Shown here piece by piece: positions 7,858 through 59,415 of a stretch of DNA of 64,000 bases. The translations under genes and the position numbers were made by a program. The stretch comes from Octopus vulgaris (taxonomy: Eukaryota): the NCBI GenBank assembly GCA_951406725.2, contig OX597829.1, positions 52,824,001 to 52,888,000 of the forward strand, in the 5' to 3' direction. A model generated the notes under the pieces. That model ran no database searches. It was not told where the DNA came from and saw only the letters and a list, made by a program, of their open reading frames with translations. Within the stretch, counting starts at the first letter, position 1; each line of letters opens with the position of its first letter.

Positions 7858-8053
7858 GTAAAGAATATATGTACCACCCATTTTCAGCGTTGCAAAAATT
7901 CTAACCCTAACCCTAACCCTAAACTCTAACCCTAACCCTAACCCTAAACTCTAACCCTAATCCTAAACCCTAATCCTAATCCTAATCCTAAACCCTAACC
8001 CTAAACTCTAACCCTAACACTAACCCTAAACACTGGGTGTACATATTCTTTAC
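7858..8053. mobile_element. MITE-like element enclosing a degenerate (CCCTAA)n array (7902-8030)
   Basis: Terminal inverted repeats GTAAAGAATATATGTACCACCCA / TGGGTGTACATATTCTTTAC around telomere-like hexamers. Confidence 0.7.
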
Positions 8054-55090: not shown

Positions 55091-57072
55091 CAGTCAGCCT
55101 GACAGACAGACAGATAGATAGGTAAATAGACAGACAGACAGATAGATATCTACATACATACATACATGCATACATACATATATAAATACATACATAGATA
55201 TATACATACATACATGGATAGATAGTCAGACAGGCAGACATACAGACGTAGTGAATCCACATGGCCTAGTGATCAGGGTGTTGCACTCACGATCATGAGA
55301 TTGCAGTTTCAATTCCCAGACCAGGCAGTGTATTGTGGTTCTTGAGCAAAACACTTCATTTCATGTTGGGCCAGTCCACTCAGCTGCAGATGGATCACCC
55401 TTCAAAAGATTGTCACACGACAGTGTGATGGTGACTCAGGAAAACCACAAGAACGGAGGATGTCTCATGAGCCAATGTTTTATATTCAGTGGTTGAAAGC
55501 ATGAATAGCACAGTCAGTGCGGTGAACCCCAACTGGTTGGCTTGGTTGCTCAACCATGTCAAAGACCAATCAATCAATATTTATATGTATTTTTTTGGTA
55601 TCTAAATATGTTGACGCAACACAAACGATCACCAGTATTGTATGGTGTAAACAACAATTTAAAATGTGATTTTCTTTATTCTTATTTTGTTCTTTTGTGT
55701 GTGTGTGTTTGTGTGTTTTTCTGCCTTTAACCTTCCAACTTGGAGTATAGGCCACTTATAATTGAATTCCATGTCGCATAATTTTTCGCCTCTGTACTTA
55801 TACTCTGCCATGAATGTCCCCCTTTCTCTGGTTCCTTTTGTCTCTCAAAGCCCAACCCCTCGTCCTTGTCGTGAGAGATGGAAACAGGTAAAGCTGGCCA
55901 ACAGGGCTCTGGTGAAGTTGAATGGGCTAATCACCCACGCAATGGATTTTATTTTCAAATTGATTACGAAAACACTGAGAGTTGACAAATCTTGTATTAA
56001 TTTACCAACCAAAGATTTCCAGAGCCAAAAGTTTTTTATGACACCAAATATATATATATATATATTTGGTAAGAATTATGCTTCTCAACCACATGCTTCC
56101 AGATTCAGTCCCTCTGTGTGGTACCATGAGTAAGTGTCTTCTACTATAGCCATGAGCCAACCAAAGCTTTGTGAGTGGACTTGGTAAATGGAAACTGAAA
56201 GAAGCTTGTTGTATATTGTCATTATCACCATAGTTTAACATCCATCTTCCATGCTTACATGGGTAGGACGGTTGACAGGAGCCAGCAATGTAGAAAATCT
56301 ACCCAAGGCTACTGTGTCTGTTTTGGCAGGGATTTTATGGCTGGCTGCTCTTCTTAACACCGACCACTCCGCAGAATGGATTCAGTGCTTTTTATGTAGT
56401 ACTAGTACAGGCAAAGTTAGTTTTGCTAAGAGTTTTACAGCTGGATGCCCTTGCAGACGCCAACCACATTACAGTGTGAACTGGATGCTTTTAACCTGGC
56501 ACCAGCACTGGCAGGATAACCAAGTAACTCACAAGACAAGGAATTATGAGAGGGGCAGGGCATTTGTGTCAGAGAATGGAAAGTCAGAGTGAGACAAAGA
56601 CACAGAGAGACAGAAGCAGGTGTCTTACCACAACAGAGTGGACATTAGAGGAGGTGGTTCAAATCAAATAAGGAAAGTTTAGAGTGTGACAGAGAAATAG
56701 AGAGGCAGAAATAGGTATCTTGCTATAGAGGAGGTACATGGTTACCCAGTGAGAGAGAGAGAGAGAGAAAGAAAGAAGGAAAGAGATAGGGAGAGAGGAG
56801 CTAGAGTTAAAGGGAGAGGTACAGAAAGAAGCCAGAAACAAGTGTGCTAATGTAAAGGTGATATCTAAATATATAAATAGATGAGTGTATTTTTACCTTG
56901 TTAACAATTAACACGGAAAAAATAAATAAATAGTTACCAGGGTAGCAAAAATCTCACAGGTAAAGAGGTTGTAACTCCTTGTTTATAAAGGTAGAAACTT
57001 CGTGTTTACGTGGAATTTTTTGTATAATATATGAATAAATAAATGGAGTTTAACACAGGTGTAAATCAAATA

Positions 57073-57169
57073 TTTTTACTTTCGACACATGTTTCGAAAA
57101 TTCCACTGATACTATTCAAAAGAATAAATGGTATAAACAATGCAATCTTCTCCTCAGGAAAGTGAAAAA
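57073..57169 (-). ncRNA. Type-I hammerhead ribozyme with long stem II and intact core
   Basis: ACUUUC-CUGAGGA(57157-57151)-GAAGAUU..AAUUUUC-GAAA-CAUGUG-UC-GAAAGU; predicted cut between 57084 and 57083. Confidence 0.8.
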
Positions 57170-57874
57170 AACGAAACTCGTCAATAAGACATTTTAGCAA
57201 AAAATGATGGAATTGTATAGCGATTAAGTGAACGCTATTAATATTGTTTAAAAAAATGTTATATAATAACAAACTGTTAAATATTAATACATTTACTAAT
57301 ACTAACATTAATTTAGCTAATACCATGCAACCCTCTAGAAATATTAATAACAAGGTTATTGTATCTGAAGTCAATACCAATAGAATTAAGAGAATTGAAA
57401 CTCTGTTTATAACTGCCAAACTCCAACCAGATGCAAGACCCTTAGAAGCCAGATCCATGAACTTTAAATGGTCTGTTACATATTTTATCTTCTTGTCGAA
57501 GTCTCCATTACTTGATTGAGATATATTCATGTAAACTAATTTTCATCTTATCATTATAAAAAATTGTTATTACCTGATCTGAATGTTTTTTATGTAAACC
57601 ATTTTTTGACTCTTCACAAAGGATACACAAAGCCTCAAACCCTTTTTTATCATTGTCAAAGACTCTGTCACTTGATTTGAATACATTTTTGTAAAACTAA
57701 TTTTTAACACCATAGAAGATACACAAAACCTCACACTTTACTTTTGAAAATCTTTTTAAATAACAGAAACCAGTTAAGTTAATAAATACTTTTAAAAGAC
57801 CCCTGCATTTTCAGATTCTTTTCATTACATTTTTACTCGTATGGTAACCCCCAATTTTACTTTGTGTTATAAAT

Positions 57875-57875
57875 A

Positions 57876-57906
<31 letters not shown>

Positions 57907-58220
57907 ATTTGTATGTATGTATGTATGTATGTATGTATGTATGTATGTATGTATCTATGTATGTATGTATGTATGTATGTATGTATGTATGTGTGTATGT
58001 AGGTATGTATGTATGTATGTATGTGTGTGTGTGTATGTATGTATGTATGTATGTATGTATGTATGTATGTATGTATGTATGTATGTATGTATGTATGTGT
58101 GTGTGTATGTATGTATGTATGTATGTATGTATGTATGTATGTATGTATGTCTGTCTGTATGTATGTATGTATGTATGTATGTATGTATGTATGTGTGTGT
58201 GTATTTATGTATGTATGCAT
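57875..58220. repeat. (ATGT)n microsatellite
   Basis: Directly visible. Confidence 0.97.
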
Positions 58221-58539
58221 ACACTTGCACACCTGTTCATACACAGACATACAAAAACACAAAAGTAAGGATTTGAAAGTTATACACAAACAAATAATGT
58301 TCAGCATTTCCGGTCTGTTAACATCTGAAATGCCAATGTGACTAAGTAATCCACCAGTAGCATTTCACTAAGATTCCTGCTATCTAAACCACTGTCGTTT
58401 CTGCTTCAACCACCAACCACCAACCACCAACCACCAACCACCAACCACTGCTACCAACACCACAACCATCAATGTCAGCGGCAGCAAAATCTACCTCGAA
58501 ACATACACCCAGCTGTTTTAGCTAGTAGGACGCATATAT

Positions 58540-58732
58540 CATCGTTGTTGTCATCATCATCATCATCATCATCATATCATCATCATCATCATCACCCTCA
58601 TCTTCTTTGTTTCTGTCATTGTCAGCGTCGTCTTCGTCATCATCATAGTTACTAACATCCTCATCATCCATCATCATCGTCGTCGTCATCGTTGTCATCA
58701 ATATCATCATCATTGTCATTTTCATCATCATC

Positions 58733-58763
<31 letters not shown>

Positions 58764-58783
58764 CCATCACCATCATCATCATC

Positions 58784-58832
<49 letters not shown>

Positions 58833-58839
58833 CCATCAC

Positions 58840-58882
<43 letters not shown>

Positions 58883-58912
58883 GTCGTCATCATCATCATC
58901 ATCACCACCACC

Positions 58913-58946
<34 letters not shown>

Positions 58947-59194
58947 TCATCATCGTCGTCGTCGTCGTTGTCATCATCATCATCATCATCACCCTCGTCT
59001 TCTTTGTCGCTGTCATTGTCAGCGTCGTTGTCATCATCATCACAGTTATTGTTGTCATCATCATCATTACTATCATCCTCATCATCCATCAGCGTCGTTG
59101 TCATTTTCATCAACATCATTTTTACCATCACCCACATCATCATCATCATTATCACCACCACCATCATCATCATCATCATCATCATCTTCATCAC

Positions 59195-59226
<32 letters not shown>

Positions 59227-59272
59227 CTATCATCATCACCATCACCATCACCATCATCATCATCATCATTCC

Positions 59273-59306
<34 letters not shown>

Positions 59307-59415
59307 TTCATCACCATCACCATCATCATCATCATCATCGTCATCATCATCACCATCATTACCAGCAGTAACTTCATCATCATCTTCATCACCATCGTCA
59401 TTATCACCACCAACA
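58540..59415. repeat. (CAT)n-rich trinucleotide tract
   Basis: Directly visible; source of the poly-D, poly-M and poly-S ORFs. Confidence 0.95.

Follow-up and report, generated by a model that had tools for sequence, protein, structure and literature searches.

Penelope-like elements (PLEs) with a pLTR-ORF-pLTR layout and a hammerhead motif have been described in PMC4209133 and PMC8557442, and the same architecture is seen in an element family (family A) of the octopus genome analysed here. According to PMC8557442, PLEs of the Hydra clade (e.g., Hydra-1_Obim) have units of less than 3 kb with a single ORF, carry RW and DKT motifs and no CCHH, show CxxC and CxH around conserved E and N residues, bear a hammerhead in their 3′ part, insert into (TA)n, and occur as truncated and inverted copies; family A is alike in all of these respects. 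For a Poseidon element, PMC11167929 reports that the protein nicked AT-rich DNA and initiated cDNA synthesis at two internal sites of the RNA, showing the use of uncut RNA as a template as well as internal priming; in the same in vitro work, ribozyme cleavage required the protein, and mutants with dead ribozymes still inserted. Retrozymes are defined, in PMC7229834 and 10.64898/2026.07.22.740005, by short tandem units carrying one hammerhead each.

The window analysed here (i.e., the whole stretch of 64,000 nucleotides of Octopus vulgaris DNA) contains a type I hammerhead motif that the preliminary description had placed in a single element of about 1 kb without a recognisable protein, abutting an (ATGT)n tract and thought to be a non-autonomous Penelope derivative or a retrozyme-like element. 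We found that this interval (56872–57876) is made up of three pieces, namely a pLTR end, an inverted ORF piece, and a separate older repeat. The first two pieces (56872–57390) very likely represent a 5′-truncated copy of an autonomous Penelope-like element, likely inserted at a TA-rich site by its own RT-endonuclease. The features of the region are:

56861–56871: degenerate, short TA-rich target sequence into which the copy runs at its 3′ end

56872–57268, minus strand: pLTR, 3′ end of the autonomous Penelope-like element (family A); 93–97% identity to 39 other loci, matching both pLTRs of locus L189

57073–57169, minus strand: type I hammerhead motif (stem I, core, long stem II, GAAA, stem III/loop, and predicted cut)

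57172–57184, minus strand: sequence upstream of the motif; in a predicted alternative fold it pairs with the hammerhead core (3′ half)

57263–57390, plus strand: inverted 128-bp piece of the family-A ORF; 97.6% identity to loci L189 and L196

57391–57876: separate older repeat (family B), truncated at 57391; 81–88% identity to other copies

57878–58217: (ATGT)n microsatellite adjoining family B

The genome (2.8 Gb) was searched with positions 56860–57880 as the query, and the best 40 of 4069 first-look candidates were scored. The 39 scored loci besides the window matched 56861–57268 with 93–97% identity, and many of them also matched 57263–57390 on the opposite strand and approximately 500 bp upstream; none of these 39 matched 57391–57880. 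The proposal of one element of about 1 kb had to be abandoned, as none of 29 family-A loci and none of 29 family-B loci showed 56872–57876 as a single unit joined in the same way. The pLTR part of the window copy (27% GC) starts approximately 96 nt past the ORF stop of full copies, terminates at the “long” fixed 3′ end of family A, and shares a 6-bp overlap (57263–57268) with the inverted ORF piece. The latter corresponds to the region between the RT thumb and the endonuclease and keeps 42 open codons from 57265, in frame; because 57263–57390 is a piece of the family-A ORF, the interval does contain recognisable protein sequence. Adjacency to the (ATGT)n microsatellite holds for the family-B repeat but not for the hammerhead-bearing part. 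A 158-codon open stretch on the minus strand (57069–57542) spans all three pieces, gave no Pfam hit, and was taken as a chance occurrence. No target-site duplication was identified for the window copy, and the window contains no second pLTR copy of family A. As a lone copy in which both the ORF and a second hammerhead are missing, the window copy is most likely inert.

Family-A loci have a common 3′ end and a variable upstream extent, and full copies were reached by walking upstream. In the full copies (L189, L190, L194, L195, and L196), the same 397 bp flanks a single ORF on both sides, and this pLTR bears the hammerhead; a check for a second hammerhead, as initially suggested, thus found two in full copies and only one in the window copy. 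The distance from hammerhead to hammerhead, which gives the unit length, is 2863 bp in L189, around a 778-codon open frame with a Met at codon 4. Unbroken 778-codon frames were found in three (L189, L191, and L192) of the eight long family-A loci fetched, which had been picked because of their long frames or tandem arrangement, and ORF sequence is carried by 21 of 30 family-A loci. Assembled contigs of four runs, presumed to represent RNA, cover the pLTR, with the ORF start included in three of the four; no GT-AG joint was seen in these contigs, which cannot show ends, strand, or level. The suspected Penelope link thus stood, in the form of an autonomous Penelope-like element with a hammerhead in its pLTR, whereas the non-autonomous 1 kb derivative did not.

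The family-A protein (P0001) has 11 database homologs with 29–39% identity, eight of which were aligned end to end. In this alignment, P0001 presented a YRDD motif and, near its C-terminus, a putative endonuclease region with Y(I/T)G, the motif IYQ...FYIG...R...H aligning with the homologs. Pfam identified no family on the full P0001 ORF; RVT_1 was found only on a fragment of the ORF (E 4e-4), and GIY-YIG gave no hit on P0001 and a weak one (E 0.012) on one homolog (P0002). A PDB sequence search returned nothing below E 0.29. An AlphaFold model built on the homolog alignment (mean pLDDT 75.6) matches telomerase RT best: telomerase RTs represented 9 of the 12 top Foldseek hits (best E 7e-9).

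P0001 has DKT, lacks CCHH, and shows CxxC and CxH beside the conserved E and N (CLLCNSE ... LVN ... CKH); however, RWL replaces the RWK of the Hydra clade, and the CxCX5C linker motif is missing both from P0001 (residues ~615–660) and from the window's own piece (57265–57390). This linker motif is present in all eight aligned homologs as well as in a second family of the same genome (described below). Because the motif is absent, we call family A Hydra-like rather than filing it in the Hydra clade. Family-A copies still end in (TA)n although their ORF lacks the linker motif. The N-terminal and RT motifs of family A line up by eye with the printed part of Hydra-1_Obim. The sequence of family A nevertheless differs from the printed one throughout, and stem II of the hammerhead has 22 nt there and 55 nt in family A; the optional 3′ tail, given as 30–40 bp for the Hydra clade in PMC8557442, is approximately 150 bp long in family A. 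Family A is distinct from the published Hydra-1_Obim, as both the printed protein start and the hammerhead differ. None of six short motifs of the window locus was found in the PMC8557442 supplement, in which line breaks could mask a match, and literature searches, with Repbase and Dfam outside their range, found no paper on family A. We regard family A as new at the family level, within an established type of Penelope-like element.

The hammerhead-shaped RNA motif at 57169–57073 is real at the level of sequence, while its cleavage is predicted. All of the initially reported structural features, including the GUC triplet, the G-C closure of stem II, a stem I of 6+5 bp, and an extended stem II, were seen on the minus strand. 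The core CUGAGGA (57157–57151) is followed by a stem II that opens with the pair G57150-C57096 (G10.1-C11.1) and spans 55 nt (57150–57096), comprising 7+5 bp and further helices; the GAAA lies at 57095–57092 and the GUC cleavage triplet at 57086–57084, with the predicted cut 3′ of C 57084. The inner stem I consists of 6 bp (57163–57158 with 57083–57078), and the outer stem I, past a bulged C, of 5 bp (57169–57165 with 57077–57073). The stem III/loop consists of 8 nt, ACAUGUGU (57092–57085), and is self-complementary with two G-U pairs; it forms 2 bp and a 4-nt loop in the monomer, and in the dimer state the ACAUGUGU duplex has a predicted energy of −6.0 kcal/mol. Cutting would thus be poor in the monomer and better in a dimer formed via the self-complementary stem III, and we consider it rather probable that the window sequence would cleave in a dimer construct. 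An alternative fold that hides the hammerhead core, in which 57172–57184 pairs with the 3′ half of the core, was predicted to be 3.0 kcal/mol more stable in a 141-nt context with 30 extra upstream bases.

A loose type I hammerhead descriptor, composed after the motif had been seen, matched the window once and none of 100 doublet-block shuffles. The hammerhead fold is the minimum-energy fold of the 101-nt motif, with 12 of 200 shuffles equally stable (z −1.82), and the fold energy of the hammerhead region is by itself unremarkable (z −1.38 and z −1.82). Rfam gave no match at gathering score across the window, and the hammerhead family was absent among matches at E ≤ 10 in a search of 56000–58500. 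With the metazoan PLE hammerheads described in PMC4209133, family A shares type I topology, the G10.1-C11.1 pair, an enlarged stem II, and a short palindromic stem III suggesting action as a dimer, as well as a predominance of solo motifs from truncated copies and opposite-strand pairs 100–700 bp apart; however, stem II has 7–8 bp there and is much longer in family A, which also lacks the extra nucleotide between A9 and G10.1 and contains an abundant lineage with a U4C change.

Matches to the pLTR in the fetched loci stop at one of two positions in 76 of 85 cases, either near position 246 of the pLTR (short end, 21/85) or near position 397 (long end, 55/85), that is, 61 and 212 nt beyond the predicted cut. 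Fifty-nine of these 76 fixed ends run into TA tracts and nine into the ORF; the window copy stops at the long end, next to a run of TA that is short and degenerate. Family A includes copies with 5′ truncation, an inverted 5′ arm, and the optional 3′ tail of ~150 bp. An adjacent inverted arm was found in 23 of 40 family-A copies (L198–L237), sampled evenly as every fifth row of two pattern lists, and scoring of these 23 by eye showed a long end paired with a short end in 19 and two short ends in one, with three not scorable. The Poseidon element PAc of Anolis carolinensis (PMC11167929) likewise has two fixed 3′ ends past the hammerhead, AT-rich targets, and a cut site that is read through, although it belongs to a different clade and its ORF starts inside the hammerhead rather than ~260 nt past the cut.

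These observations are consistent with a pathway in which the family-A enzyme would nick (TA)n and cDNA would begin at one of two fixed points of the RNA. The window copy runs through the cut site, and its template must therefore have been either uncut or re-ligated at that hammerhead. The predicted cut falls approximately 260 nt upstream of the ORF start, where, going by PMC4209133, the hammerhead would cleave read-through transcripts. Since the long end is usually paired with the short one, the inverted arm of the window copy is expected to reach the short end, approximately 850 bp from the junction; this arm is atypical in having no fixed end. Only 128 bp of the arm is left, and it stops exactly where repeat B is interrupted, a coincidence suggesting that the window arm was truncated by deletion. 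The inverted arm would then once have reached the short fixed end over a length of ~850 bp, and its outer part would have been lost along with the left part of repeat B; internal priming of the arm is the alternative.

The preliminary description had made its case depend on conservation of the hammerhead among copies, and the motif is indeed kept in hundreds of copies. In 30 chosen rows representing three subfamilies, 92.3% of 918 cells were paired, as compared to 34–53% in slid controls. Covariation was limited to one clear inherited change from U-A to C-G in stem I, along with G-U/G-C and U-A/U-G swaps in stem II across subfamilies, and the outer 5 bp of stem I were broken in 7–11 of the 30 rows at three pairs; conservation thus supports a real structure, with covariation contributing thinly. 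Two older subfamilies (L099–L148), ~80% alike, retain the same hammerhead, and a few copies have a stem III loop that is 2 nt shorter.

Exact 20-letter patterns identified 671 motifs with CUGA and 552 with CCGA (U4C) in the genome, while longer patterns identified at least 357 motifs with an intact core and G-C closure and at least 176 with U4C and a G-U closure of stem II; reversed-pattern controls gave 0 in both cases. The altered lineage is characterised by CCGA in place of CUGA, often accompanied by a G-U closure of stem II, a GUA triplet, and the loss of a pair from stem I, and U4C was present in all three unbroken-ORF copies checked (L189, e.g., L189:2467, L191, and L192). In a tree of 84 pLTR rows, a sample biased by the way in which loci were found, 10 of the 13 U4C rows form a supported clade with short branches nested among CUGA rows, and the window copy has a terminal branch of 0.013, typical of its subfamily. 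Altered copies were also more uniform, with a median pairwise distance of 0.032 as compared to 0.081 for intact copies (20 each, evenly sampled), in a comparison of non-independent copies, with several sublineages combined in the intact group. Eleven of the 20 altered copies keep only five of the six inner stem I pairs, while five of the 20 intact copies have five or fewer. For the length of the 5′ extension, no clear difference emerged between the intact and the altered lineage (medians of 264 and 394 bp, respectively; p 0.10). Two variants, among them that of the altered lineage, have a perfectly palindromic stem III/loop, and the window form pairs there with two G-U wobbles. According to PMC3088659, U4C lowers activity considerably in vitro, and a natural U4C variant is active enough in vivo in a viroid. 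Judging from these sequence comparisons, the youngest branch of family A has spread with a hammerhead that is likely weakened.

Several other explanations for the locus and its hammerhead were considered. That the interval is copied in one piece, as a non-autonomous retrozyme or a Penelope derivative of 1 kb, and gives rise to small circular RNA is very improbable. Family A does share a type I hammerhead, AT-richness, and a high copy number with metazoan non-LTR retrozymes as presented in PMC7229834 and 10.64898/2026.07.22.740005, and the latter source argues that retrozymes derive from pLTRs; however, no tandem units of 150–450 bp were seen among the exact family-A motif hits of contig C1, and the family is joined to its own RT-endonuclease ORF, a piece of which is carried by the window copy itself, and this copy has one hammerhead, no pLTR partner in the window, and a 1 kb arrangement seen at no other locus examined. 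The retrozyme-like tandem arrangement raised in the preliminary description was likewise not found: the exact motif hits listed for contig C1 number 104, and those with a same-strand neighbour within 10 kb are separated from it by 2859, 2863, 4023, and 8719 bp, the closest two distances corresponding to full elements, with no same-strand neighbours at less than 2.8 kb and all closer pairs on opposite strands. Even less probable is co-option of the window copy by the host, e.g., to cut a pre-mRNA spanning it. The intact core and stems of this copy speak in favour, but the same form is usual across hundreds of copies, the terminal branch of this copy has the typical length given above, and the window yielded no host gene (no Pfam hits among the 50 longest of 168 open stretches, a search that small exons could escape).

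A different question is whether the family-A hammerhead is a vestige, ribozyme-shaped but no longer cleaving or needed and carried along because every copying event includes the stretch of RNA in which it lies, which we regard as conceivable though somewhat doubtful. The high numbers of U4C motifs, the nesting and greater uniformity of the altered form, its occurrence in every unbroken-ORF copy checked, and the in vitro insertion of ribozyme-dead mutants of another PLE (PMC11167929) all point in this direction. On the other hand, three subfamilies that are ~80% alike have all retained the core, the G-C closure, and the palindromic stem III, the altered lineage gained a perfect stem III palindrome, GUA is still a valid triplet, and the viroid variant mentioned above shows that U4C is compatible with activity. 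The perfect palindrome in the altered lineage makes attenuation rather than loss possible. We tentatively put forward, as a plausible reading short of the probable, that the youngest, ORF-intact lineage multiplied while its hammerhead decayed stepwise (U4C, G-U closure, and loss of a stem I pair), such that cleavage would be dispensable or kept weak, and that (TA)n targeting operates without the proposed linker cysteine motif. If stepwise decay in a multiplying lineage is correct, family A would serve as a natural experiment addressing two questions in Penelope biology that are still debated. One is the need for ribozyme cleavage, questioned by in vitro work on one element; older intact and youngest altered pLTR hammerheads, together with unbroken ORFs, would allow a direct test of this need, and the window copy, itself a routine dead copy, would provide the ancestral intact ribozyme for comparison. 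The other is target choice, since family A inserts at (TA)n even though it has lost or never had the linker motif to which this preference is ascribed.

The remaining piece of the supposed 1 kb element, the family-B repeat (57391–57876), was searched separately, and the best 40 of 463 candidates were scored (81–88% identity). Family B has fixed ends near 57830 and 57876, approximately 46 bp apart, against microsatellites, and copies elsewhere extend into CA-rich sequence; no ORF, homolog match, or hammerhead was found in family B or its extension. Its copies (L040–L068 and L164–L188) show degenerate internal repeats and, in several cases, inverted second arms, a layout that recalls a Penelope-mobilised non-coding element, without ORF or hammerhead. 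Family B was also considered as the 5′ part of a Penelope element and rejected, since family-A sequence lies close to only one of 29 family-B loci and is separated from it there by a microsatellite; a continuation of family B was not found on the other side of the Penelope insertion.

The window also contains a second hammerhead-type family, represented by an inverted pair of hammerhead-bearing ends between TA tracts (22913–23205), with hammerhead cores at 23136 (plus strand) and 22982 (minus strand). These ends have 1045 candidates in the genome and are 96–98% alike. One locus of this second family (L197) has a 727-codon open frame that is 33% identical to P0001 and includes the linker motif. 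Two degenerate simple repeats were observed in addition, namely an 855-bp (TCA)n tract at 58551–59406 and a (CTAACC)n tract of approximately 130 bp at 7896–8031, a telomere-like repeat in an internal position.
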